DNA of 64,000 nt from Macrostomum lignano (lineage: Eukaryota): assembly GCA_002269645.1 (NCBI GenBank), contig NIVC01003431.1:1-64000 (forward strand), given 5' to 3'. The translations under genes and the position numbers were made by a program. Each line of letters starts with the position of its first letter. Position 1 is the first letter of the stretch. Under the pieces are notes generated by a model. That model did not search any database, had not been told where the DNA came from, and saw nothing but the letters and a program-made list of their open reading frames with translations. Shown one piece after another: positions 1 through 41,933 of the stretch.

Positions 1-66
1 GAGGAGGAGAAGATAAAAAGTGTTAAGGGGAGAAAGAGAGACAGAGACAGTGAAAAAATTACTTAC

Positions 67-3000
67 GAATCGTATCGGCGTAAATGACGCGGGTTCCTAG
101 ACCCTCCAGAGCCTCGTAGAGTCGCAGCCGGGCGTGGGAGGTGGTGAAAACGCCAATAGGTACATTAGCGTACTTGAACGCCCGCTCGCCAGCACCGCCA
201 AATCGGGGCTTGTACTCGAGCATCATGAAGCTCTCCCCAATTGGCTCGCACGACTTGACCTTGATCGAGGGGTCGTCAGGCGCTGCAGCCACGCCTCGTA
301 GCTGTCCACAATCTCTGTGGAGGTCAGGTCGTCGCGCTGGCAGAATTTGCCCCAGAGCCTGCAGGGAAAAATAAATTTTTTTTGTAAGTAGAAAAACAGG
401 CCCCACTGCAAGTAGAAAAAACTTACGAGTTTAGAAAAATCTTGGCACAAAGCGCAGGCCAGGATTTCTCCACCTTTTCCAGCCGGACGCCTTCGCGCTC
501 GAAAAAGCTGGCCATGTAGGCAGCCTTGGCGTCCTCAGCCATCCCCGGCGAACCGCTAGACTCGGCTTTGAGCTTCAAAAAAGTGTTTACATAATCTGCA
601 AACAGGCCCGTGCGAGTCTCGGTCCAATAGGCCAGGGCATGAACTGACTGCAGCTTGTAACCCAACTGCAGGGCCTTGTGGAGCTCTGGGGTCGACCACG
701 TGCCGCGGAGCATTCTCTCAGCGTCAGTGTGTGTACACTCGCTGCTGCACTGGGTCTCCATGCAGACGCGGCAGAGGCCGAAAACCAGCTTCTTGTTAAT
801 CTTGGCGGGCAGTAGCGGGATGTGGAGATTGGTTGGCGGCAGAATCGACACCTCGGCGATGCCAAAATACCGGGCCAGCTGCAGCTCATCCAGTAGATGA
901 GGCTCGGGGTGGTGTACCGGGTGCCCGACAGGGTACTTGTCAAACTTGTTGACAGTCGGGTAGAGCGACACCTAGGGGATAAGGGATAAGATAAACTCAA
1001 ACGCATGTCAACTGTGTGTGTACAAGTGTACAAACTTACCACATCCCGATAGCGCAGCTCTACAGTCTCGGTGGCCTCGGCGTGCGGGACAAAAGCCTCG
1101 GTACGGCCGCCAAACAGGGCATCCTCCAGGCGAATAGGCTGCTGGACTGGCGCTCCCTCGTCCTGATAGTCGTGCTCCCACAGAACACGCACATTGTATG
1201 CAGTGGAGAGCAGCCGGTGAAGCGCTCAGTCTCCTCATAAATCGCCCGCATTGGCTGGTTCTTGAGCGGGTGCAGCACGTCGCCGTTGGGGAAGCACTTG
1301 GGACAGCCATGGAAGAAGCAGCCATGAAACTGCAGCACTGTCCTGGTCTCTGGGTCGAAGCCGTCGACCTTACGGCCCATGGCGAAAGCCTCGCCGCCCG
1401 AGTCCGCTGTCCGCAACCGGCCGCCAAACTCGGTTGCATTCAAATGTGCAGCCAGCACCGCGCCTTGTGCGACTGTACATCGGACCGGCGGGAAATCACC
1501 CCAAGAGTGTTGGGCTCCATAAACTTGGTGGTGAATAACAGCCATGGCCAAGCCCGCAATGGTGTTGGATTGAACAAATGCGTCCAGTCCGCAAATGTCC
1601 TTAATCAGGCGGGTATTTAGACAGCCTTCCCGCAAAATTAACGTGTCCTGCAGGCAGTAGTCCAGGTACTCCTTATTGAAATTAAACACCTGTCCCTCCT
1701 GCTTGGCCAGCCAGTCGGCGATGGAGTCATGCTGCTTGTTTTTCCTCCATACATATCAATTGAGCAGTAGGGACCCACGTACCCCCAATTTTGGCTGGTT
1801 AAACACGTGCGGGAAATCTCCTTTGGTCAGTTGGGTGCCCAAACCAAGCGCCTTTGGGAATTGCGCCAGACCAATAGGGATGAAATTGAGGCTGTCCTTG
1901 AAGGTGATCTTGTCGCACTTCATACATTAGGCGGCTGTTCTGGAAGATCACTTGCGGCTTCTTCTTGGCCAGTCCGTTGAGTAGGGCGCCGAGCAGGAGG
2001 AATGCGTCATACGCAGAGCCATTGTGCGCAATAGCAATTGCCCCCTGCTTGAACACACTAGTCAGCCAGCAGTAAAAGGCATCGATAGAGTGCGGCCCGA
2101 CAGATACAAACTCTCGCATCCCACAGGCACAGTCATTGTGCGAGACACAGCTCGTGAAATCGAGTGCCAAATCGCGTCCCGCAATGCAATTGGCTGAGCT
2201 GTGTAGTCCCCCGCACGCTGCAGCGGGGCCTGGGGAAGAGTTTGGGACACGCCTCGCAGGAGGTGGCAGCCGTAACCAAGTGTACCCGGTGCTGCTTGCC
2301 AGAGTCCACGTACGTCTCGAAATCATAGTAAACATACGGGGCGCTAGACTCTTTGGCTTTGGGCGGGGTGACAAAGCACTCGTGGGTGGCAGTTTCGTCG
2401 TACTGCTTGCAGACTGGGCACTTGGCGTAACCACACTGATGCTCAGGGGGCTGGCCTACTTTTAGTTCTTCTAGATAGCCACACGTGCCGCAAACGTGGA
2501 CCGAATCACAGCGCGATCTGCCGGCCTTATTCTTGCGCTTGTGATTTTCTAGGCACTGAGCATTATAGCAATTTAGCCCGCAATCATGGCATCTTACATA
2601 TGCGCGGTTTGCCTTACAGTTGGAGCCCGGAGTCTTGCATGTACTGCAGGCATCAGCGCACTTGTGCTTCTCATATTGCAGTCGTAGGCCATCTCGCACT
2701 TGGGGCAGTAGTGATCGAGCCGAAAAACGCAGGCAGCTTGGTACCACATTAAAGTGCTGCTCGACCAGGTGTAGGTGCAGAATCTCGGTGCCAGGCAGGT
2801 TGAAGATGCACCTGTTGGCCTCCTCTGCGCGGTACACGCGTACACCAAAATCGTGCCCGGATGCAGCCGGTTCAGGGCACGGATCGCTTCGGGCAGTGCA
2901 TCCACCCGAAAGGACCGCCTGCGAGACGGTTTGAAGAGTCTGTGTGGGGGTAAAATATTTCTTTTAGTATTCCTGATACTGTGTAAAATCTTATCAGAAA

Positions 3001-4674
3001 ATTTCTTTTAGTATTCCATGATACTGTGTAAAAATCTTATCAGAAAATATATCTTTTAGTATTCCATGATACTGTGTAAAAATTCTTATCAGAAAATATA
3101 TCTTTTAGTATTCGATACTGTGTAAAAATTCTTATCAGAAAATTTTAGTATTCCAGATACTGTGTAAAAATTCTTATCGAAAAATACTAGAAACTTACCG
3201 TAGAGGCCAGCTTCGATTTGTAGCTCAGCCAAGCTTAGTCTGCGTGGGCGAATTGGCCTTGATTGTGCCACACCTGCTGGTGATGGACTTGGCCACGAAT
3301 TGCAGGTAGGCGCAGGCCACGACCAGAGCGCGCAGCAGGCATCTCTTGTCCGAGTTGGTGATGCGGACATAGTGCTTGGAGAAGGCGTGCCGCTCTTCTA
3401 GATGCTTGTTCTCGAGAGCACATCCACCTCGAGGCACCCAGGCCTTTAGCAACCGATAGAAAAGTTGCCGACAACAGTGGCATCCGACTGCACAATCTTG
3501 TCATGTGCTTAAACAACAATTCAGCCGTCATGCGGGCTGCACGCACCGGGGGAGTGTGGGCCGCTTTGAGCATATTGTCGCTCTCGAATTTCGCGGCCAT
3601 AAAGTCATCACCAGCCAAATCTTGCTTGAAAACTTCGAGCATGTCAGCAAACACCTCCCGCAAATCTTCGGTGTTGGTAATATGCACCACATACTCGACA
3701 CCCTTTGCCCTAAACTTGGGCAGGTCACGCTGATTATCCAGCCGGGCCGTAAAACCTGCATGGGGGGAATGGGGGAGTGTGAGTCAGCTAGGGTCTGTGT
3801 GGGAAATGGGGGGCTGGATAACTCACCCGGTCCGGTAACAGATTCCGGCTGTGTTGGCGGGACAAACGCGTCTGAAAAAACACAAGGAGATAAAAAACCA
3901 GAAGAATCTGTCATTTTCCTGGCCCCAGCGTGTTTCCCCGCCCTAGCCCCAGCAATTTCTTAACAGAGTTTACTCTGCTGTCCCCGCAGCAACTCTCTGC
4001 AATTTCTTATCTGCACCCCCGCTGCAGCCTGTCGCAGCAGTCTTTGTTTACTCACCCCTGCAACTCTCTGTCGCAGCAATTTGCACCTAGCTGCAGCCTG
4101 TCTGGGTAGCGCCCTATCTGCAGCCCCAGTCTGTCCCAGCAACTCTCTGCCCCCACCTGGCTGGAACTTGTCTAGCCTGCCCCAACGATTCTGCAGCAAT
4201 TTCTTATCTGCCGCAGCACCCTAGCAACTGTCTGTTTTTGCAGCAATTTCTTATCAGCACACCCCTCCCTGTCTAGACAACACCCCACCCCAGTCTTTGT
4301 TTACTCACCCCTGCAACTCTCTGTCGCAGCAATTTGCACCCCAGCTGCAGCCTGTCTGGACAACACCCCCCTAGCAGCAATTTCTTATCAGCACACACCC
4401 GGCTGAAACTTGTCTAGCCCTCCCCTGCAACTCTCTGTTACAGACCCTGCCGCAGCACCCCACCCTAGCAACTCCAGTCTAGACCCCTGCAGCTGTCGCA
4501 GCAGTCTTTGTTGTTTACTCTGCGGTCCCACAGACCCTGCAGCTGCTGCTGCTGCTCAGCCCCTACCCCCACCCTAGCAACTACAGTCTAGACAGAAATT
4601 AATTAAAACTTACCATAAAGACGTTGCCTCTTGTCAGCCAGGAAAGCAGTTGCTGCGGCGCTGCGTTTAGCCAT
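67..4674 (-). CDS. polB: Protein-primed family B DNA polymerase, copy 1 (exons 4674-4614, 3871-3827, 3755-3199, 2939-1040, 971-427, 358-67; last exon outside window; several 1-2 nt indels)
   Basis: ORF fragments carry YDFET, AHNGSAYD, YCLQD, D(V)VSLYP, KIFLNS/LWGKF and YADTD. GT-AG introns mirror those of copy 2. Confidence 0.9.
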
Positions 4675-4912
4675 TTTGCAAACAGAGAGCGTGAGAGAGC
4701 GGAGAGAGAAGGATTTATCTCTCTACCCTGGCTCTGGGGGTCTGTATATATACTAAAAAATCTGCTCAGCTCGCCTGTTATTGGATAAATCGCCAAAAAC
4801 CAACCAAAATCATCAAAAATCACCCCAAAATCATCACCCACCCCACCCTCCATCCGGGGTATATAAGGCGCTGCACGGCTGTCAGAGAGCTCTCTGCTGC
4901 TGCTGCTAAATC
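4675..4912. promoter_or_regulatory. Bidirectional promoter between polB and PC4-like gene (copy 1)
   Basis: GTATATAAGG at ~4860 lies about 50 nt before the PC4 ATG (4913). An opposite-strand TATATATA and a CCAAT precede the polB ATG (4674). Confidence 0.6.
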
Positions 4913-5445
4913 ATGTCTTCTATCTCTCTATACGAAAACTTTGTGGCGCGGAAGCCCACATTTGAAACTGAACACAACTTGATTGAAATTCGGCGTCTCT
5001 ACACCAACGAGGCCGGAGTGTGGAAGGACGGCTTCCCTGCAATCTACTTGGCCGAGCCAGAGTGGAAGAAGCTCGAAGCTGCGCGCCCTGACCTGGAGGC
5101 TGCTGCCCGCCTTCACGTGAACAAGCGGGTCCTGTTGGGCAATTTCAAGGCAGTTGAAGCTTCGCGAGGGAGGATCCGTTTGCTGCGCAATTGGCTCAAT
5201 CAGGACCCAAAGTTTAATTGGCGCTACACGATCGAATTCACGCCTGAACTGTGGCGCCGGATGTTTGCCGCCCGTTTGGACAAGCTCTTCAAGCCGGCAC
5301 CTGAGGCACCCCTCCAGCCAAGCGAGTCAAGACAGACACGCCTCCGGTAGCCGGGACTGAGGTGGATGTTCTTCAGCTCATGGGTCTCAAACCCTACCAA
5401 TCTCCACCCTGGGAAAATCTGTTTAACGAGGGTTGGGACTGCTAG
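4913..5445 (+). CDS. Tandem PC4-like ssDNA-binding protein, copy 1 (1-nt indel near 5310; about 177 aa)
   Basis: LIEIRRLYTNEAGVWKDGFPAIYLAEPEWKKL matches the PC4/Sub1 signature (human [32 protein letters not shown]). A second repeat reads IRLLRNWLNQD...IEFTPELWRRM. An NLS-like PAKRVK appears after correcting the C-run using copy 2. Confidence 0.75.
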
Positions 5446-5560
5446 TTTCCTATTGGTTCGCACCGCCTCACTCGATCCGTCTATATAATTAGTGTTTCCC
5501 CCTCTCCAGAGAGTCAAACCCTATCTCAGCTCTAATACTTTACTCTCTGTTGATTCTAGC

Positions 5561-5707
5561 ATGTCCCGCCGAGCTCTATCCAACCTCTGGGATAATAATC
5601 GCCCGACTGAAGAGTTAACCAGCCTCGACGGGGATATCCCTGAACACATAGTTCCCCTAGGCACTGAAAACAACGGAATGATAATTGGGAGGCTGATCAA
5701 TATCTAG
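5561..5707 (+). CDS. Small orphan ORF (48 aa, MSRRALSNLW...)
   Basis: ATG at 5561 downstream of CTATATAA (~5483). No recognisable domain. Confidence 0.3.
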   Translation: MSRRALSNLWDNNRPTEELTSLDGDIPEHIVPLGTENNGMIIGRLINI

Positions 5708-5715
5708 CTTGGGCT

Positions 5716-6570
5716 ATGTCCTATGATAGCGACACCGAGTCTGAAGTTTTTGACCTCCCGCTGCTGGCTATCGGCGGGTTGTGAACGGTGCCCCTGCTGC
5801 TACTGCCTCCGATTTGACTACCGCCTCAGCCGCCCTCTTTGACGTCTCTGTTGAGGAGCTGACCACAACCGGCCCTGCCTCTGCTGCGCCCGTCTCTGCT
5901 GCTGCCGCCTCTACTACGCCCGTCTCTGCTGCTGCTTCAACTACCTCCCACCGGGCCTCAATATCATCAGCCGCTACGCTCCTTCTCTTCGACGACGAGG
6001 ACGAGGATATGTCTGAGGAGATCGCCGTGGTTCGTGAGCGCTTTCCTCGCATTGTGGCCTCATTTTTCCGTGGGGACATTGACTGGCTGAGGTCTCGGCA
6101 TCCTGGCGGGCTGCCCTCCCAAGCCACCTTTGTCAGAGCCTTTAATCGGGTTCTTGATACTTTGGTTGCGAGGGGTGCCGGCCTACGGGAGGTGGGAGGC
6201 TGAGACTCTGCACCAGGACTGGTTGATGGGGCGCAATTCGTATGCCCCCGACTCTGAGGCGTACCTGGCCGGTCCGGGAGCGCGGCCAACCGCGTGGGAT
6301 GAGCCCGCCGCATGGCCCTCCAACTGGGAGGAGCACCTTTCGTTGGTGCGCTATACAGCGTCTCTACGTCTGTGGCGGCTGGAGGACGATTTAGATTTGG
6401 TAAGATATTACATTATATACACAACTCATCTAATCATATACCTTGCATATATTCTATCTACATTGACTGTTATAATTTCCACATTGCAGTCATCCGACTA
6501 CTGCTTCGAGAGCGTGGAGGAAGAGGCCGCGTACGAGACAGCCCTGAGGGAGCGTATGGAGATTGACTGA
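5716..6570 (+). CDS. Orphan element protein (about 250 aa), joined across two probable 1-nt indels (~5775, ~6175) and one intron (6400-6489)
   Basis: ATG 5716 followed by ORFs 5781-6203 and 6130-6570 in consecutive frames. The AT-rich 90-nt insert TTG|gtaaga...ttgcag|TCA is a phase-0 intron. Confidence 0.55.
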
Positions 6571-6701
6571 TAAGGGTTTTCTCTTTGTACGCGTTTGGGG
6601 AACCCAACACTGTACACTGGGTAGGTTAGAATGGCGCTAGCTGGGGGGCCTCTATGTGTGTATACACGGGGGTTAAAAGACCAATTCTGATAGCTCGCTC
6701 C

Positions 6702-6778
6702 TAGGGAGGAAATTGGCAGAGGGGCCGGCCCAAAAAACTGAAATGGGCTGGCCCCGGGCTCGAGTCCACCCACCTAAA
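6702..6778 (+). ncRNA. Putative Pol III-type structured small RNA 1
   Basis: GGGAGG-N4-TGGCAGAG (A-box-like), a 12-bp stem with 11-nt loop, then GGCTCGAGTCC (B-box-like). Same layout as 14361-14450. Confidence 0.5.
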
Positions 6779-6880
6779 ATATGGAGGTCATTACAACCTA
6801 ATGACCGAAATACTTTCAACGCAATTGTACCCATAAGAGGGTTAGGGCGGCGGCGGCGGTGGCGAAAACGGGCGGCTAAA

Positions 6881-7809
6881 ACCTCCCTTTTGGGATTTCC
6901 CCGAACCGCTTTTGTTAAAATTTTTATGCACCTGCGGGTTAGACAATATTTACTCTTTAGTCGGTGCGACATTATTTACGCGTCTGTTGCACCTGGGCGT
7001 TTGCCTATAATCTGATTATACATGCGTGCCTGTATTATACAACTACACCTTATGCATGCCTTGTAAACCTGCTTTATACATTAATCCGATATGTATCGAA
7101 AGTACACTTTGTAAACCTGCTGTGTGTATTTCCCCCTATGTAGCGCCTACAGTACCTGCTTTGTCTATTTCTGCCCATGCACCTACATTGTGTGTTTTTG
7201 CTGCTCATATGCTCCAATATGTACATTTTAATATGCAATATGCGTCATTATTCACCTACCAATATGTTTTATCTACATTTTTATGTAAATATACTCAATT
7301 TCACCTACTATAAGTAGTTTTCACTAGCCTAATATCGTTGACTACATATCGGGAGAGTGTGGTAGAGTGTACACACATATCGGTAGAGTGTACCTTGGGC
7401 TCGGTAGAGTGTACACTCGGGGTGCTTGCGGCTCGGTAGAGTGTACACTCGGGGTGCCTGCGGCATGGGCGTCTGCGGCATGGGCGCCTGCGGCTGGGGA
7501 AGGTCGCCTGCGGCTCGGGAGGGTGTACATATCGGGGTACATGTCGGTAGGGTGAGCATACATATCGGTAGGTGCGCCTGCGGCTGGGGAGGGTCGCCTG
7601 CGGCTGGGGAGGGTCGCCTGCGGCTGGGGAGGGTCGCCTGCGGCTGGACGGCGCTTGGCGCCACGCGCCTGCGGCGCGCGCGCGCGCCGAGCGCCGATAT
7701 CGATACGGGTATCGATCACCTAGTGATCGGGGCGCCAGCCAATGAGAGGCGAGGAGGGTTGACACCCACCCCCCTCCCAAAATCAACACATCTGCCAGTC
7801 CATAGTAGT
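6881..7809 (+). repeat. Terminal repeat (inferred TIR), copy at the PC4-side end
   Basis: Highly similar to 14514-15393. AT-rich inner part, GC-rich 16-20-bp subrepeats, palindromic cluster, ends CATCTGCC-N6-TAGTAGT. Confidence 0.75.
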
Positions 7810-7898
7810 GACAGATTATATGTAATTTATATACGATTTATATGAAATTAAGCTTACCAAAAATCGGGTTCGCGCTGTACGGATACGGCACGCCTCAA

Positions 7899-8395
7899 TT
7901 AGCAACCCTCGTCAAACAGATTTCCCCAAGGGTAGGGTTTGATGCTGTCAAGGCAGTCCTGCAGATTGTCCTCTGTCTTGACTCGCTTGGCTGGAGGGGG
8001 TGCCTCAGGTGCCGGCTTGAAGAGCTTGTCCAAACGGGCGGCAAACATCCGGCGCCACAGTTCAGGCGTGAATTCGATCGTGTAGCGCCAATTAAACTTT
8101 GGGTCCTGATTGAGCCAATTGCGCAGCAAACGGATCCTCCTCGCGAAGCTTCAACTGCCTTGAAATTGCCCAACAGGACCCGCTTGTTCACGTGAAGGCG
8201 GGCAGCAGCCTCCAGGTCAGGGCGCGCAGCTTCGAGCTTCTTCCACTCTGGCTCGGCCAAGTAGATTGCAGGGAAGCCGTCCTTCCACACTCCGGCCTCG
8301 TTGGTGTAGAGACGCCGAATTTCAATCAAGTTGTGTTCAGTTTCAAATGTGGGCTTCCGCGCCACAAAGTTTTCGTATAGAGAGATAGAAGACAT
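7899..8395 (-). CDS. Tandem PC4-like ssDNA-binding protein, copy 2 (1-nt indel near 8140; about 165 aa, variant C-terminus)
   Basis: Near-identical to 4913-5336 in reverse complement. Ends APPAKRVKTEDNLQDCLDSIKPYPWGNLFDEGC*. Confidence 0.75.
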
Positions 8396-8633
8396 GATTT
8401 AGCAGCAGCAGCAGAGAGCTCTCTGACAGCCGTGCAGCGCCTTATATACCCCCGGATGGAGGGTGGGGTGGGTGATGATTTTGGGGTGATTTTTGATGAT
8501 TTTGGTTGGTTTTTGGCGATTGACCAATAACAGGCGAGCTGAGCAGATTTTTTAGTATATATACAGACCCCCAGAGCCAGGGTAGAGAGATAAATCCTTC
8601 TCTCTCCGCTCTCTCACGCTCTCTGTTTGCAAA
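8396..8633. promoter_or_regulatory. Bidirectional promoter (copy 2)
   Basis: CCTTATATACCC at ~8440 (TATA on minus strand), CCAAT at ~8524, TATATATA at 8556-8563, polB ATG at 8634. Confidence 0.6.
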
Positions 8634-11600
8634 ATGGCTAAACGCAGCGCCGCAGCAACTGCTTTCCTGGCTGACAAGAGGCAACGTCTTTATGGTAAGT
8701 TTTAATTAATTTCTGTCTAGACTGTAGTTGCTAGGGTGGGGGTAGGGGCTGAGCAGCAGCAGCAGCTGCAGGGTCTGTGGGACCGCAGAGTAAACAACAA
8801 AGACTGCTGCGACAGCTGCAGGGGTCTAGACTGGAGTTGCTAGGGTGGGGTGCTGCGGCAGGGTCTGTAACAGAGAGTTGCAGGGGAGGGCTAGACAAGT
8901 TACAGCCGGGTGTGTGCTGATAAGAAATTGCTGCTAGGGGGTGTTGTCCAGACAGGCTGCAGCTGGGGTGCAAATTGCTGCGACAGAGAGTTGCAGGGGT
9001 GAGTAAACAAAGACTGGGTGGGGGGTTGTCTAGACAGGGAGGGGTGTGCTGATAAGAAATTGCTGCAAAAACAGACAGTTGCTAGGGTGCTGCGGCAGAT
9101 AAGAAATTGCTGCAGAATCGTTGGGGCAGGCTAGACAAGTTACAGCCAGGTGGGGGCAGAGAGTTGCTGGGACTGTGTAGCGCGGGGACAGACTGATAAG
9201 AAATTGGCAGGGGCGCTACCCAGACAGGCTGCAGCTAGGTGCAAATTGCTGCGACAGAGAGTTGCAGGGGTGAGTAAACAAAGACTGGGGTGGGGGGTTG
9301 TCTAGACAGGGAGGGGTGTGCTGATAAGAAATTGCTGCAAAAACAGACAGTTGCTAGGGTGCTGCGGCAGATAAGAAATTGCTGCAGAATCGTTGGGGCA
9401 GGCTAGACAAGTTTCAGCCGGGTGGGGGCAGAGAGTTGCTGGGACAGACTGGGGCTGCAGATAGGGCGCTACCCAGACAGGCTGCAGCTAGGTGCAAATT
9501 GCTGCGACAGAGAGTTGCAGGGGTGAGTAAACAAAGACTGCTGCGACAGGCTGCAGCGGGGGTGCAGATAAGAAATTGCAGAGAGTTGCTGCGGGGACAG
9601 CAGAGTAAACTCTGTTAAGAAATTGCTGGGGCTAGGGCGGGGAAACACGCTGGGGCCAGGAAAATGACAGATTCTTCTGGTTTTTTATCTCCTTGTGTTT
9701 TTTCAGACGCGTTTGTCCCGCCAACACAGCCGGAATCTGTTACCGGACCGGGTGAGTTATCCAGCCCCCCATTTCCCACACAGACCCTAGCTGACTCACA
9801 CTCCCCCATTCCCCCATGCAGGTTTTACGGCCCGGCTGGATAATCAGCGTGACCTGCCCAAGTTTAGGGCAAAGGGTGTCGAGTATGTGGTGCATATTAC
9901 CAACACCGAAGATTTGCGGGAGGTGTTTGCTGACATGCTCGAAGTTTTCAAGCAAGATTTGGCTGGTGATGACTTTATGGCCGCGAAATTCGAGAGCGAC
10001 AATATGCTCAAAGCGGCCCACACTCCCCCGGTGCGTGCATCCCGCATGACGGCTGAATTGTTGTTTAAGCACATCAACAAGATTGTACAGTCGGATGCCA
10101 CTGTCCTGACGGGCAACTTTTCTATCCGGTTGCTAAAGGCCTGGGTGCCTCGAGGTGGATGTGCTCTCGAGAACAAGCATCTAGAAGAGCGGCACGCCTT
10201 CTCCAAGCACTATGTCCGCATCACCAACTCGGACAAGAGATGCCTGCTGCGCGCTCTGGTCGTGGCCTGCGCCTACCTGCAATTCGTGGCCAAGTCCATC
10301 ACCAAGCAGGTGTGGCACACAATCAAGGCCAATTCGCCCACGCAGACTAAGCTGGTGGCTGAGCTACAAATCGAAGCTGGCCTCTACACGGTAAGTTTCT
10401 AGTATTTTTCCGATAAGAATTTTTACACAGTATCGTGGAATACTAAAAGATATATTTTCTGATAAGAATTTTTACACAGTATCGGGGAATACTAAAATTT
10501 TCTGATAAGATTTTTTACACAGTATCAGGGAATACTAAAAGAAATATTTTACCCTCCACACAGACTCTTCAAACCGTCTCGCAGGCTGGTCCTTTCGGGT
10601 TGGATGCACTGCCCGAAGCGATCCGTGCCCTGAACCGGCTGCATCCGGGGCGCGATTTTGGTGTACGAGTGTACAGGGCAGAGGAGGCCAACAGGTGCAT
10701 CTTCAACCTGCCTGGCACCGAGATTCTGCACCTGCACCTGGTCGAGCAGCACTTTAATGTGGTCACCAAGCTGCCTGCGTTTTTCGGCTCTGATCACTAC
10801 TGCGCCAAGTGCGAGATGGCCTACGACTGCGCCAACGCCGAGCACAAGTGCGCTGACGCCTGCAGTACATGCAAGACTCCGGGCTCCAACTGTAAGGCAA
10901 ACCGCGCATATGTAAGATGCCAGGATTGCGGGCTAAATTGCTATAATGCTCAGTGCCTAGAAAATCACAAGCGCAAGAATAAGGCGGGCAGATCGCGCTG
11001 TGATTCGGTCCACGTTTGCGGCACGTGTGGCTATCTAGAAGAACTAAAAGTAGGCCAGCCCCCTGAGCATCAGTGTGGTTATGCCAAGTGCCCAGTCTGC
11101 AAGCAGTACGACGAAACTGCCACCCACGAGTGCTTTGTCACCCCGCCCAAAGCCAAAGAGTCTAGCGCCCCGTATGTTTACTATGATTTCGAGACGTACG
11201 TGGACTCTGGCAAGCAGCACCGGGTACACTTGGTTACGGCTGCCACCTCCTGCGAGGCGTGTCCCAAACTCTTCCCAGGCCCCGCTGCAGCGTGTGCGGG
11301 GGACTACACAGCTCAGCCAATTGCATTGCGGGACGCGATTTGGCACTCGATTTCACGAGCTGTGCCTCGCACAATGACTGTGCCTGTGGGATGCGAGAGT
11401 TTGTATCTGTCGGGCCGCACTCTATCGATGCATTTTACTGCTGGCTGACTAGTGTGTTCAAGCAGGGGGCAATTGCTATTGCGCACAATGGCTCTGCGTA
11501 TGACGCATTCCTCCTGCTCGGCGCCCTACTCAACGGACTGGCCAAGAAGAAGCCGCAAGTGATCTTCCAGAACAGCCGCCTAATGTACATGAAGTGCGAC

Positions 11601-13925
11601 AAGATCACCTTCAAGGACAGCCTCAATTTCATCCCTATTGGTCTGGCGCAATTCCCAAAGGCGCTTGGTTTGGGCACCCAACTGACCAAAGGAGATTTCC
11701 CGCACGTGTTTAACCAGCCTCAAAATTGGGGTACGTCGGTCCCTACTGCTCAATTGATATGTACGGAGGAAAGAAAAACAAGCAGCATGACTCCATCGCT
11801 GACTGGCTGGCCAAGCAGGAGGGACAGGTGTTTAATTTCAATAAGGAGTACCTGGACTACTGCCTGCAGGACACGTTAATTTTGCGGGAAGGCTGTCTGA
11901 AATATACCCGCCTGATTAAGGACATTTGCGGACTGGACGCATTTGTCCAATCCAACACCATTGCGGGCTTGGCTATGGCTGTTTTCACCACCAAGTTTAT
12001 GGAGCCCAACACTCTTGGGGTGATTTCCCGCCGGTCCGATGTACAGTCGCACAAGGCGCGGTGCTGGCTGGCACATTTAAATGCAACCGAGTTTGGCGGC
12101 CGGTTGCGGACAGCGGACTCGGGCGGCGAGGCTTTCGCCATGGGCCGTAAGGTCGACGGCTTCGACCCAGAGACCAGGACAGTGCTGCAGTTTCATGGCT
12201 GCTTCTTCCATGGCTGTCCCAAGTGCTTCCCCAACGGCGACGTGCTGCACCCGCTCAAGAACCAGCCAATGCGGGCGATTTATGAGGAGACTGAGCGCTT
12301 CACCCGGTTGCTCTCCACTGCATACAATGTGCGTGTTCTGTGGAGCACGATTATCAGGACGAGGGAGCGCCAGTCCAGCAGCCTATTCGCCTGGAGGATG
12401 CCCTGTTTGGCGGCCGTACCGAGGCTTTTGTCCCGCATGCCGAGGCCACCGAGACTGTAGAGCTGCGCTATCGGGATGTGGTAAGTTTGTACACTTGTAC
12501 ACACAGTTGACATGCGTTTGAGTTTATCTTATCCTTATCCCCTAGGTGTCGCTCTACCCGACTGTCAACAAGTTTGACAAGTACCCTGTCGGGCACCCGG
12601 TTCACCACCCCGAGCCTCATCTACTGGATGAGCTGCAGCTGGCCCGGTATTTTGGCATCGCCGAGGTGTCGATTCTGCCGCCAACCAATCTCCACATCCC
12701 GCTACTGCCCTCCAAGATTAACAAGAAGCTGGTTTTCGGCCTCTGCCGCGTCTGCATGGAGACCCAGTGCAGCAGCGAGTGTACACACACTGACGCTGAG
12801 AGAATGCTCCGCGGCACGTGGTCGACCCCAGAGCTCCACAAAGCCCTGCAGTTGGGTTACAAGCTGCAGTCAGTTCATGCCCTGGCCTATTGGACCGAGA
12901 CTCGCACGGGCCTGTTTGCAGATTATGTAAACACCTTTTTGAAGCTCAAAGCCGAGTCTAGCGGTTCGCCGGGGATGGCTGAGGACGCCAAGGCTGCCTA
13001 CATGGCCAGCTTTTTCGAGCGCGAAGGCGTCCGGCTGGAAAAGGTGGAGGAGAATCCTGGCCTGCGCTTTGTTGCCAAGATTTTTCTAAACTCGTAAGTT
13101 TTTCTACTTGCAGTGGGGGGCCATGTTTTTCTACTTACATAAAATTTATTTTTCCTCTGCAGGCTCTGGGGCAAGTTCTGCCAGCGCGACGACCTGACCT
13201 CCACAGAGATTGTGGACAGCTACGAGGCGTGGCTGCAGCGCCTGACAGACCCCTCGATCAAGGTCAAGTCGTGCGAGCCAATTGGGGAGAGCTTCATGAT
13301 GCTCGAGTACAAGCCCCGATTTGGCGGTGCTGGCGAGCGGGCGTTCAAGTACGCCAATGTACCTATTGGCGTTTTCACCACCTCCCACGCCCGGCTGCGA
13401 CTCTACGAGGCTCTGGAGGGTCTAGGAACCCGCGTCATTTACGCCGATACCGATTCGTAAGTAATTTTTTCAACTGTCTCTGTCTCTCTTTCTCCCCTTA
13501 ACACTTTTTATCCTTCTCCTCCTCCTCCCAGGGTCGTATACCGCTGCTCCCCGGGCGAGTACGAGCCTCCGGGCGGTTCGAGTTTGGGGCAGTGGACTGA
13601 CGAGGTACCTGCTGGCTGCCGCATGGTACAGTTCACCACGGGAGGCCCCAAGCTCTACCGGTACGTGGTGGAGAAGCCCGACAGGTCGCTGTACTCGGTG
13701 CTCAAGTGCAAGGGCATCAGAGTCACGCCCGAGATTTCCGAGCGCGAGGACGAGCTGCAGGAAATTCTGCGCCACGGGGGCTCTGTCCGCCTGCCCCAGG
13801 CCCAGTTCAGGCGCGATAAGGCCAGCTGTACAATCCGGACCCTGGAGATGGACAAGACTTTCCAGCGCGTAATGACTAAGAGGGTGTATGGGGCCGCTAG
13901 CCGCCCGTATGGCTTTCGTGAGTGA
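8634..13925 (+). CDS. polB: Protein-primed family B DNA polymerase, copy 2: exons 8634-8694, 9707-9751, 9822-10390, 10564-12480, 12546-13093, 13163-13456, 13532-13925 (about 1,270 aa; three 1-nt indels in exon 4)
   Basis: All six introns are GTAAGT/GTGAGT...YAG and splice in frame. Exo I-III: YDFET, HNGSAYD, YCLQD. Pol A/B/C: RDV|VSLYP, KIFLNS|LWGKF, YADTDS|V. Also a Cys-rich zinc region, a Vsr-like VDGFD...QFHGCFFHGC segment, and N-terminal OTU-like DKRCLLRAL...QHF. Confidence 0.93.
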
Positions 13926-14087
13926 GTGAAAGATAAGGATCTGTCTTTACACGCCTGGGATTCCCCTATGTGCCCACTTGGGATCCCTTGACTCTTGGGG
14001 TTGAAAAATGGTTTTACGCCCGCACTGTACTTAGGGGTCCTTACTCATTTGACACCTCCTGTACATTGAGCGGGATTCCTTCAAGTG

Positions 14088-14333
14088 TTAAAACTCCCAT
14101 TTGACACCTATTCCCTCGGGGCGGTTTGTGGCCCAGCGGTCCGCCTCTTGGAGTAGAACTCCTGACATGAACTTGCTGCGCTGATTAGCGTACTGATAGC
14201 GCAATCGAAATACGTCCATTTTTCTAGCCCACTTGTGGGTACATTTACGTTGAAAGATGTTGATGCGTTCAATAACGTTGTAATAATAATAAGTCTCCAC
14301 ATCATAGGGCGGCGAAACCTCCCTTTTGCTCAT
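14088..14333 (-). CDS. Small orphan ORF (81 aa) convergent with polB
   Basis: ATG-initiated, non-repetitive ORF inside the element. No recognisable domain. Confidence 0.35.
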   Translation of the reverse strand: MSKREVSPPYDVETYYYYNVIERINIFQRKCTHKWARKMDVFRLRYQYANQRSKFMSGVLLQEADRWATNRPEGIGVKWEF

Positions 14334-14360
14334 CTATTTTAGACAATAATGAGACTCTGA

Positions 14361-14450
14361 CCCCGGGAGGTTAATGGCCGAGCGGGTAACCCTGGCGGTA
14401 TAAAACAGGGTGACCCAGGCTCGATTCCTGGCTGGGGGCTGTAGACTTTT
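14361..14450 (+). ncRNA. Putative Pol III-type structured small RNA 2 (tRNA-like boxes, not a tRNA)
   Basis: TGGCCGAGCGG A box; 11-bp stem with 11-nt loop; T-arm CCAGG-CTCGATT-CCTGG containing the B box; closing CCCCGG/CTGGGG; TTTT at ~14447. Confidence 0.55.
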
Positions 14451-14513
14451 CCGGCCCCTGCGTCCCTATTGGGTTTAATTGTGTTGAAAGTATATCGGGT
14501 CATTAGGCCGTGA

Positions 14514-15393
14514 ACCCCCCTTTTGGGATTTCCCCGAACCGCTTTTGTTTAATATTTATGCACCTGCGGGTTAGACAATATTTACTCTTTAGTCGGTGCG
14601 ACATTATTTACGCGTCTGTTGCACCTGGGCGTTTGCCTATAATCTGATTATACATGCGTGCCTGTATTATACAACTACACCTTATGCATGCCTTGTAAAC
14701 CTGCTTTATACATTAATCCGATATGTATCGAAAGTACACTTTGTAAACCTGCTGTGTGTATTTCCACCTATGTAGCGTCTACAGTACCTGCTTTGTCTAT
14801 TTCTGCCCATACACCTACATTGTGTGTTTTTGCTGCTCATATGCTCCAATATGTACATTTTAATATGCAATATGCGTCATTATTCACCTACCAATATGTT
14901 TTATCTACATTTTTATGTAAATATACTCAATTTCACCTACTATAAGTAGTTTTCACTAGCCTAATATCGTTGACTACATATCGGGAGAGTGGTAGAGTGT
15001 ACATATCGGTAGAGTGTACACTCGGGGTGCCTGCGGCTCGGTAGAGTGTACACTCGGGGTGCCTGCGGCATGGGCGTCTGCGGCATGGGCGCCTACGGCT
15101 CGGGAGGGTGCGCCTGCGGCTCGGGAGGGTGTACATATCGGGGTACATATCGGTAGGGTGGGCATACATATCGGTAGGTGCGCCTGCGGCTGGGGAGGGT
15201 CGCCGGTGGCTGGGGAGGGTCGCCTGCGGCTGGACGGCGCTTGGCGCCACGCGCCTGCGGCGCGCGCGCGCCGAGCGCCGATATCGATACGGGTATCGAT
15301 CACCTAGTGATCGGGGCGCCAGCCAATGAGAGGCGAGGAGGGTTGACACCCACCTCACCTCCAAAATCAAGCCATCTGCCGTTGCTTAGTAGT
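14514..15393 (+). repeat. Terminal repeat (inferred TIR), copy at the polB-side end
   Basis: Repeat of 6881-7809 with subrepeat copy-number differences. Confidence 0.75.
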
Positions 15394-17298: not shown

Positions 17299-17348
17299 AA
17301 AAATATGGAACGCTTCACGAATTTGCGTGTCATCCTTGCGCAGGGGCC

Positions 17349-17388
<40 letters not shown>

Positions 17389-17405
17389 ACTGCCGAAGCA
17401 AGTAC
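17299..17405 (-). ncRNA. RNU6: U6 snRNA gene, copy 1
   Basis: Reverse complement reads GTACTTGCTTCGGCAGTACATATACTAAAATTGGAACGATACAGAGAAGATTAGCATGGCCCCTGCGCAAGG...CCATATTTTT. TATATATA lies about 25-30 nt upstream. Confidence 0.97.
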
Positions 17406-23730: not shown

Positions 23731-23780
23731 AAAAATATGGAACGCTTCACGAATTTGCGTGTCATCCTTGCGCAGGGGCC

Positions 23781-23820
<40 letters not shown>

Positions 23821-23837
23821 ACTGCCGAAGCAAGTAC
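23731..23837 (-). ncRNA. RNU6: U6 snRNA gene, copy 2
   Basis: Same U6 sequence and upstream TATA as copy 1. Confidence 0.97.

Positions 23838-30978: not shown

Positions 30979-41933
<10,955 letters not shown>

Follow-up and report, generated by a model that had tools for sequence, protein, structure and literature searches.

Linear plasmids, adenoviruses and bidnaviruses are held to have arisen from Polintons by loss or splitting of modules, and we found in the literature no animal nuclear element in such a module-losing transitional state. To our knowledge, pGKL-type plasmids and transpovirons do not depend on nuclear splicing. The closest described systems include the animal Polintons/Mavericks with an Alpha-class (group 2) protein-primed DNA polymerase B (pPolB), also called 'adintoviruses' (class defined in PMC8502044). 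Polintons/Mavericks measure 13-25 kb, end in (AGT)2//(ACT)2 or (AG)3//(CT)3 (10.1101/2023.08.22.554363, PMC8097293) and carry genes for an integrase, an ATPase, a protease and a capsid, and intact vertebrate Mavericks are intronless (PMC8097293). Nine Polintons devoid of MCP, PRO and ATPase have been described (PMC4028283); the integrase is retained by Polintons by definition (PMC5499653). Fungal cytoplasmic linear plasmids (pGKL type) and transpovirons are linear, TIR-bounded and derived from Polintons via loss of the virion module, and have a TP-OTU-polymerase layout (PMC11161782). Finally, bidnaviruses and the Drosophila Vesanto virus have a pPolB segment and several units with common termini; their segments, of 3-6 kb, are not known as integrated families.

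The element described here, present in dozens of near-identical and apparently transcribed copies in the genome of the marine flatworm Macrostomum lignano, resembles the Alpha-class Polintons in its OTU-like domain and PF03175 polymerase, its long TIRs and its 6-bp target duplications, a length within the 5-8 bp of Polintons/Mavericks. It differs from them in its size (8.8-9.7 kb), in lacking all four of the genes named above, in the six spliceosomal introns of its pPolB gene, and in its ends, ACTACTA..TAGTAGT instead of the common (AGT)2..(ACT)2, the nearest being the rare (AC)3A..T(GT)3 motif of the swamp eel. Like the capsid-less Polintons it has lost the whole virion module, but it integrates precisely without an integrase of its own. 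It shares the layout of the linear plasmids and transpovirons, whereas it resides in the nucleus, is spliced, and is known here as integrated copies, which are numerous and flanked by target duplications.

The window (64,000 nucleotides of contig NIVC01003431.1) begins with a type-A unit inserted into a unit of the variant A', with duplication of the hexamer 7810-7815 (L020 compared with L026). Positions 1-5336 are an inverted copy of 7972-13524 (96-97%), and 6880-7809 repeats 14513-15393 (92%). The features are the following:

1-7809, minus strand: type-A inner unit, truncated at the start of the contig; entire on contig C2368 (L020, 9273 bp)
1-4674, minus strand: exons 1-6 of the inner-unit pPolB gene, with many single-base frame breaks
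4913-5350, plus strand: inner-unit PC4-like ORF, which has 177 aa in most of the remaining type-A copies
5561-6570, plus strand: orphan gene, acidic and of low complexity, interrupted by a single GT-AG intron (6400-6489)
6714-6770, plus strand: Pol III-type RNA 1, with A box, hairpin and B box
6880-7809, plus strand: TIR of the inner unit, terminating in TAGTAGT
7810-7815, plus strand: 6-bp target duplication of the nested insertion
7810-15393, plus strand: right part of the outer unit, variant A', matching the complete A' unit found naturally at L026 (8812 bp) at 99%
7899-8395, minus strand: PC4-like ORF of the outer unit, a 165-aa variant with a different tail
8396-8633, no strand: putative divergent promoter region between the PC4-like ORF and pPolB, with a TATA-like box; a similar box is found in family B
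8634-13925, plus strand: pPolB gene of the outer unit, seven exons, exon 4 frame-broken in the window copy
8634-8694, 9707-9751, 9822-10390, 10564-12480, 12546-13093, 13163-13456 and 13532-13925, plus strand: pPolB exons of the outer unit
14088-14469, no strand: optional block with a putative small ORF (14088-14333, minus strand) and Pol III-type RNA 2 (from 14375, plus strand, T4 stop)
14513-15393, plus strand: TIR of the outer unit, terminating in TAGTAGT and followed by a 21-bp satellite

The earlier note on this DNA had joined two arms of the window into a hypothetical TIR-bounded unit of about 9.9 kb, and complete natural units arranged in that order do exist in the genome. Twenty loci were fetched, and the 17 with both ends in view all hold TIR-bounded units of 8.8-9.7 kb flanked by perfect 6-bp target duplications (L018 and L019 being one site). 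The order TIR, RNA, orphan, PC4-like gene, promoter, pPolB, TIR, with the last two genes divergent, is found in the 15 two-ended type-A units and in L030. The size had been overestimated, since type-A units measure 9.27-9.71 kb and the A' unit 8.8 kb, and the two arms joined belong to different subtypes. The small ORF and second RNA are an optional block, complete in 3 of the 19 right arms fetched, and the 'orphan ORFs' are one spliced gene; 6 of the 10 type-A copies inspected have it as a frame of 336 codons. The layout is not an assembly artefact, because it recurs on many contigs with distinct flanks and the nested junction is also present on C2368.

The 0.9-kb segment was rightly taken for an inverted terminal repeat: it occurs on many contigs as outward-facing pairs 9.3-9.7 kb apart, and, being paired around pPolB, it is not an independent repeat. 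The TIRs are 0.65-0.9 kb long. Left and right TIR have a median identity of 100% within one copy and of 97.6% between copies, and the outermost 30 nt are the same on both sides in 14 of 17 copies, whereas they are identical in 7 of 136 copy pairs. Such likeness within a copy could equally come from gene conversion once the copy had inserted.

The units encode a Polinton-type pPolB, a PC4-like protein and the acidic orphan, together with a single Pol III-type RNA or two. Contigs of the runs X1, X4 and X12 skip all six GT-AG introns of pPolB and the one of the orphan; these runs are called RNA-like because their RNA nature is a guess of the search tool, and the joints listed for X18 show no intron skipping. 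The RNA-like runs indicate that both transcripts are spliced by the host (Pol II). Three pPolB exon frames match PF03175 in Pfam, and the predicted model of a family-B database protein is nearest to phi29 polymerase in the PDB and to adintovirus PolB in BFVD. The nearest named polymerases, from oysters, cnidarians, a spider, insects and vertebrates, share about 26-38% identity. The Cys and His of the OTU-like domain, altered in bidnaviruses (PMC11161782), are invariant across 42 rows. A frame free of stops over every pPolB exon is found in only 4 of the 20 fetched copies. The protein also contains a nuclease-like insert, recognized by its motif by eye and by a restriction-endonuclease-like match over 129 columns; VSR inserts have been described (10.1101/2023.08.22.554363).

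The 'PC4 SSB' of the earlier note is present as an ORF only tentatively related to PC4: its matches to PF02229 (E 0.04-0.19) fall under the Pfam cut-off and that to PC4 in the PDB has an E of 0.62, while its best three Atlas matches are PC4 clusters (0.86-0.88). Its single-sequence structure model gave no usable fold (pLDDT 39), and BLAST revealed no internal PC4 repeat. The orphan protein belonged to no known family in the searches run. A reading of it as an integrase or capsid was rejected, the searches, by tblastn among others, having given no such match. RNA 1 folds better than its shuffles (z = -3.67) and RNA 2 does not (z = -1.45); neither matched an Rfam family or a tRNA.

The absence of a recognisable integrase, capsid, ATPase or protease, claimed from the letters alone, was borne out, as 11 queries for these functions gave no tblastn match at E<=0.8 in 22 loci and the window. 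No integrase was found there by Pfam either, nor any part of a virion module, be it major or minor capsid, ATPase or protease; the PC4-like protein and the orphan are the only non-polymerase proteins of the element. Nevertheless, it inserts as cleanly as full Polintons. The perfect duplications at 17 of 17 loci, of the size that rve integrases make (PMC12220804), point to enzyme-made integration and argue against a plasmid captured by chance repair; this narrows the choice offered before, of linear-plasmid-like element, satellite or segment, towards the latter two. For integration and packaging the element probably relies on other elements or on partner segments not yet seen. It seems improbable that the element integrates by its own means, through the orphan or the nuclease-like insert, or through an LTR-retrotransposon integrase. 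Such a route would suit an orphan without known family, the insert itself, and element ends that differ from the local full Polinton end. However, the orphan is acidic, of low complexity, largely missing from the mobile A' unit and not seen in the single family-B copy read, and the insert is also found in integrase-bearing Polintons.

The family-B copy read represents a second family, with the same layout. Families A and B differ by a dN of 0.2-0.46 and a dS of 1.4-2.6 and have 4 of 4 intron sites in common, and they share a stem 1.2 changes per site long in a quick pPolB tree of 45 rows, which omits six database rows lacking the anchor motif and holds no adenovirus, bidnavirus or plasmid rows. 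The near-saturated dS, together with the common layout and introns, indicates that the reduced form is not a recent deletion. A full Polinton recently deleted inside and carried passively has precedents in the nine capsid-less elements and in 10 C. elegans loci with pPolB and TIR but no nearby integrase (10.1101/2024.01.15.575659), and the A and B loci were read only in part. Besides the divergence and long stem, however, exon 5 had no strong match among the integrase-linked pPolBs of the genome, and in the sole long end pair with pPolB (C271, 40.6 kb) there are a separate pPolB and an integrase that belong to a different family, so we regard this origin as very improbable. The description as a replication-only, TIR-bounded, host-spliced module is supported: the orphan matches no integrase or capsid, the TIR is no independent repeat, and the reduction does not look recent.

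The suggested genome search for other TIR-bounded units did find some. The element ends occur 234 times genome-wide (control, 0), and among the first 100 listed there are 35 inward pairs, 16 with a pPolB match and 19 without. Examples of pairs without pPolB are C93:602814-611469, C303:572722-582109, C436:114944-124196, C660:142160-151060 and C977:137703-146993. Thirteen of the 19 are single units of 8.1-9.9 kb, also without a PC4-like match and known from ends and seed matches alone; none is among the best 40 whole-TIR matches. Family-B ends likewise bound units of 2.7-6.7 kb without a listed pPolB match. The pPolB-less units could be the true partner, which speaks against a satellite. They fit a segmented Polinton-derived element or virus whose pPolB unit replicates all segments via the common ends while other segments of 8-10 kb carry the integrase and perhaps the capsid, common ends being a mark of segmented viruses such as Vesanto virus (PMC8363768) and bidnaviruses (PMC8502044). 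This would be an endogenous segmented Polinton, with only outer ends in common, independent integration at dozens of sites, host splicing and complementation in trans. We consider both the segmented reading and this particular form of it possible but rather unlikely. No capsid match lies inside the end pairs (126 of 195 candidates scored), nor any adenain (67 of 67, with a silent control), and the single integrase match (C106; 150 of 1459 and 93 of 2660 candidates scored) lies in a 21-kb pair that is perhaps nested. Moreover, the sizes and end variants of the pPolB-less units resemble those of ordinary copies; the units may thus be ordinary copies that escaped the seed search, or passengers with other DNA.

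Full Polintons are at hand in the genome, with at least 73 capsid matches among the 126 of 195 candidates scored. One family of about 18.2 kb has integrase, ATPase and capsid, and two further integrase families have long intronless pPolB frames 8-16 kb away. The ATPase family search of the genome found none and is too weak for use, since it missed the ATPases present in L033 and L035; no adenain was found in 67 of 67 candidates, the positive control being silent as well. The single full Polinton end read is ACTACT, the reverse of the TAGTAGT of the element, which makes the 18.2-kb family a poor helper, and several full Polinton families could lend an integrase. Searches of metagenome and viral contigs, collections that may not include the records of this genome, gave no match to the end pattern, and those of viral contigs one weak relative.

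We therefore favour, with somewhat better than even confidence, an old Polinton-derived satellite that replicates itself and is integrated by a helper. A copy would leave the chromosome, or be copied out, as linear DNA. The pPolB would prime on its own N-terminal terminal-protein domain, freed by its OTU-like protease, and copy the DNA by strand displacement. The PC4-like protein would hold the strand set free, which would close into a TIR panhandle, and the two ends of the copy would thereby be made alike. Insertion would then fall to a retroviral-type integrase supplied by a full Polinton of that nucleus, and a helper capsid may also package the copy.

The element has retained replication, lost integration and packaging and acquired introns, yet it spreads, and it allows the self-synthesis model, with its TIR matching and protein-capped intermediates, to be tested in a laboratory animal. 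The Polinton survey of 10.1101/2023.08.22.554363 asked for five core genes, all lying inside 20 kb; surveys of this kind would miss the class, which may thus be more widespread.

The window covers the first 64 kb of contig C3431, and near-identical proteins in UniRef bear the label of the flatworm Macrostomum lignano. In the window, positions 7972-13524 have an inverted copy at 1-5336, and positions 14513-15393 have a direct copy at 6880-7809. A search of the 764-Mb assembly (5269 contigs) with this 0.9-kb segment, in which the best 40 of 321 candidates were scored, gave at least 41 matches, and most of them face outward in pairs spaced 9.3-9.7 kb. We have fetched 20 loci with such pairs, 17 with both ends in the stretch and three with one end missing. 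All 17 two-ended loci carry a unit of 8.8-9.7 kb with the termini ACTACTA..TAGTAGT and a perfect 6-bp target duplication, at 16 distinct sites (L018 and L019 being one). The gene order proposed in the earlier note was seen in these natural loci, and its observation of the unit is confirmed with corrections.

The inner unit of the window is present whole in locus L020 (contig C2368), whose left and right flanks match positions 1742-2041 and 2036-2342 of locus L026 with six bases doubled. Thus, the window holds a nested insertion, a type-A unit within a unit of its variant A'. The unit obtained in the earlier note by joining two arms agrees with natural type-A units, but it is a blend of both subtypes. 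Nesting also occurs elsewhere, since an A unit of 40.6 kb (C271:276939-317558) encloses the protein-primed DNA polymerase (pPolB) and integrase of another family. The right end of the window element adjoins a duplicated block that carries two U6 snRNA genes (17299-17405 and 23731-23837, minus strand) and 21-, 29- and 17-bp satellites. Translation of positions 35228-41933 revealed fragments of a host frizzled-like gene amid long simple repeats.

The left and right TIRs of one copy are at the median identical over the outer 600 nt, versus 97.6% between copies, and for the outer 30 nt, 14 of 17 copies have two identical ends, whereas identity between copies is limited to 7 of 136 pairs. Such matching is consistent with a panhandle as a copying intermediate ahead of insertion, although the likeness may also come from gene conversion. 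Within these 30 nt (window 15364-15393; 100 ends), the sub-terminal bases resemble shuffled blocks of 6-7 nt; the 17 copies show 14 variants, and the two ends of a copy almost always share one.

The pPolB gene has seven exons and six introns, and every intron is skipped with GT..AG ends in contigs from the sequencing runs X1, X4 and X12 (intron 1 in X4 alone, intron 3 in X4 and X12, the remainder in all three); these runs and X18 are presumed to be RNA. Among the joints listed, with 14 more outside the listing, none from X18 skips a pPolB intron. The splice flanks are conserved in every copy covering them, and three exon frames match PF03175. A database model of pPolB from the related family B (mean pLDDT 75, N-terminal domain ordered) is closest to phi29 polymerase in PDB and to adintovirus PolB in BFVD. 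One Cys and one His are invariant across 42 rows in a region that we take, on the basis of motifs and PMC11161782, to be an OTU-like protease. A stop-free frame over all exons is retained in 4 of 20 copies; many of these breaks consist of single-base indels, and at several the window is contradicted by short-read contigs, so part of this decay is probably assembly error. The gene models of UniRef proteins P0009, P0158, P0192 and P0198 combine pPolB with host genes, among them ADAM-like and zinc-finger ones, which probably reflects mis-joined annotation of copies sitting in introns.

A search with exon 5 (134/134 candidates scored) gave, by eye and including some assembly duplicates, about 55 loci at ≥90% and about 35 at ~70%. 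The one family-B copy read is TIR-bounded, spans 9489 bp with termini ACTACG..CGTAGT within an ACT run, and encodes pPolB; integrase, capsid and a PC4-like frame were not found in it, and other B loci have such a frame at ~44%. Between A and B, dN is 0.2-0.46 and dS 1.4-2.6 (five exon stretches), all four intron sites tested are common, and pPolB is under purifying selection. A quick tree with 45 rows unites A and B (SH-aLRT 100, stem 1.2) and places them within the animal Polinton polymerases, in loose association with those of oysters (86). Database matches above 47% with a named organism all come from the same species, the others lying at 26-39%. Set beside this divergence, an origin of the element by recent deletion seems highly improbable to us.

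The PC4 single-stranded DNA-binding protein of the earlier note, encoded divergently from pPolB, remains a weakly supported assignment (Pfam E 0.04-0.19, Atlas 0.88, PDB E 0.62), and its orphan ORFs proved to be one acidic spliced gene without a family match in the searches run. A scan of 15.4 kb with A-box and B-box patterns gave two pairs, versus 0.007 per shuffle. The small ORF and RNA 2, a Pol III-type RNA, are present, but within an optional block that 3 of 19 right arms contain in full. A motif around CTGTAC..GG, found once per window arm, is repeated five to six times downstream of genes in variant arms; one unit has this array in its left arm, others have it in their right arm, and the motif may act as a 3' signal or a site for small RNAs:

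L026:1468-1904, minus strand, CTGTAC..GG array
L028:939-1449, CTGTAC..GG array
L029:971-1428, CTGTAC..GG array
Window 6609, single motif
Window 14024, single motif

Dozens of loci (e.g., C318:56434-58589 and C6:632831-634987) have a distant PC4-like frame (~32%) located ~1 kb upstream of an integrase, so Polintons of this genome probably carry PC4-like genes as a rule.

The exact end pattern occurs at least 234 times genome-wide (control 0). The first 100 ends listed form 35 inward pairs, 16 with a pPolB match and 19 without; 13 of the latter are single units of 8.1-9.9 kb that also lack a PC4-like match, such as:

C93:602814-611469, same-ended unit without pPolB
C436:114944-124196, same-ended unit without pPolB
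C660:142160-151060, same-ended unit without pPolB

The loci found by the pPolB and PC4 searches largely coincide and no such unit is among the best whole-TIR matches listed, suggesting that they are likely a separate class. On the other hand, they resemble ordinary copies in size and end variants, and the search counts are lower bounds. In searches that covered part of the candidates or had low sensitivity, no capsid or adenain match fell inside these units, and a single integrase match did. That the element itself is one segment of a segmented element appears rather unlikely.

The window and 22 loci were searched with eleven queries (integrase, ATPase, capsid and protease), and no match below E 0.8 was found, in line with the earlier note's lack of integrase or capsid. 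Duplications of 6 bp are made by rve integrases (PMC12220804). Integration by the element's own activity or that of a retrotransposon is, in our opinion, quite unlikely. The genome contains full Polintons, with at least 73 capsid matches. Loci L033 and L034 represent a full Polinton with integrase, ATPase and capsid and TIR pairs ~18.2 kb apart, L035 and L036 contain polymerase, ATPase and capsid, and in two further integrase families, long pPolB frames without introns lie at a distance of 8-16 kb. The one full Polinton terminus read is ACTACT, the usual Polinton motif (PMC8097293) and the reverse of the element's TAGTAGT; thus, the end read does not point to a helper. This terminus can form a hairpin, since its last ~20 bases recur in inverted orientation ~100 nt inward (L034:4413-4517). 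Further features of the full Polinton are a gene for a D5/PriCT-2 primase-helicase-like protein and an integrase frame that begins with a phospholipase A2-like stretch at the N terminus (L033:1436-2665, L034:2230-3036).

The element resembles Polintons in its mode of replication and insertion but differs in integrase, virion module, size, introns and end motif. Polintons without capsid (PMC4028283) and pPolB remnants with TIRs and no nearby integrase (10.1101/2024.01.15.575659) were already known, and 10.1101/2025.04.19.649669 mentions flatworm Polinton-type insertions without detail. The open literature searched, including 10.1101/2023.08.22.554363, PMC6431247, 10.64898/2026.10.13.758929, PMC8363768 and PMC8502044, yielded no description of a pPolB family that is mobile and spliced and lacks an integrase, although an earlier entry, for example in Repbase or a subscription journal, is possible. 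On balance we lean towards a self-replicating satellite, which would pass through a free linear form, replicate by protein priming and strand displacement with a putative role for the PC4-like protein, and be inserted by an integrase borrowed from a Polinton helper.
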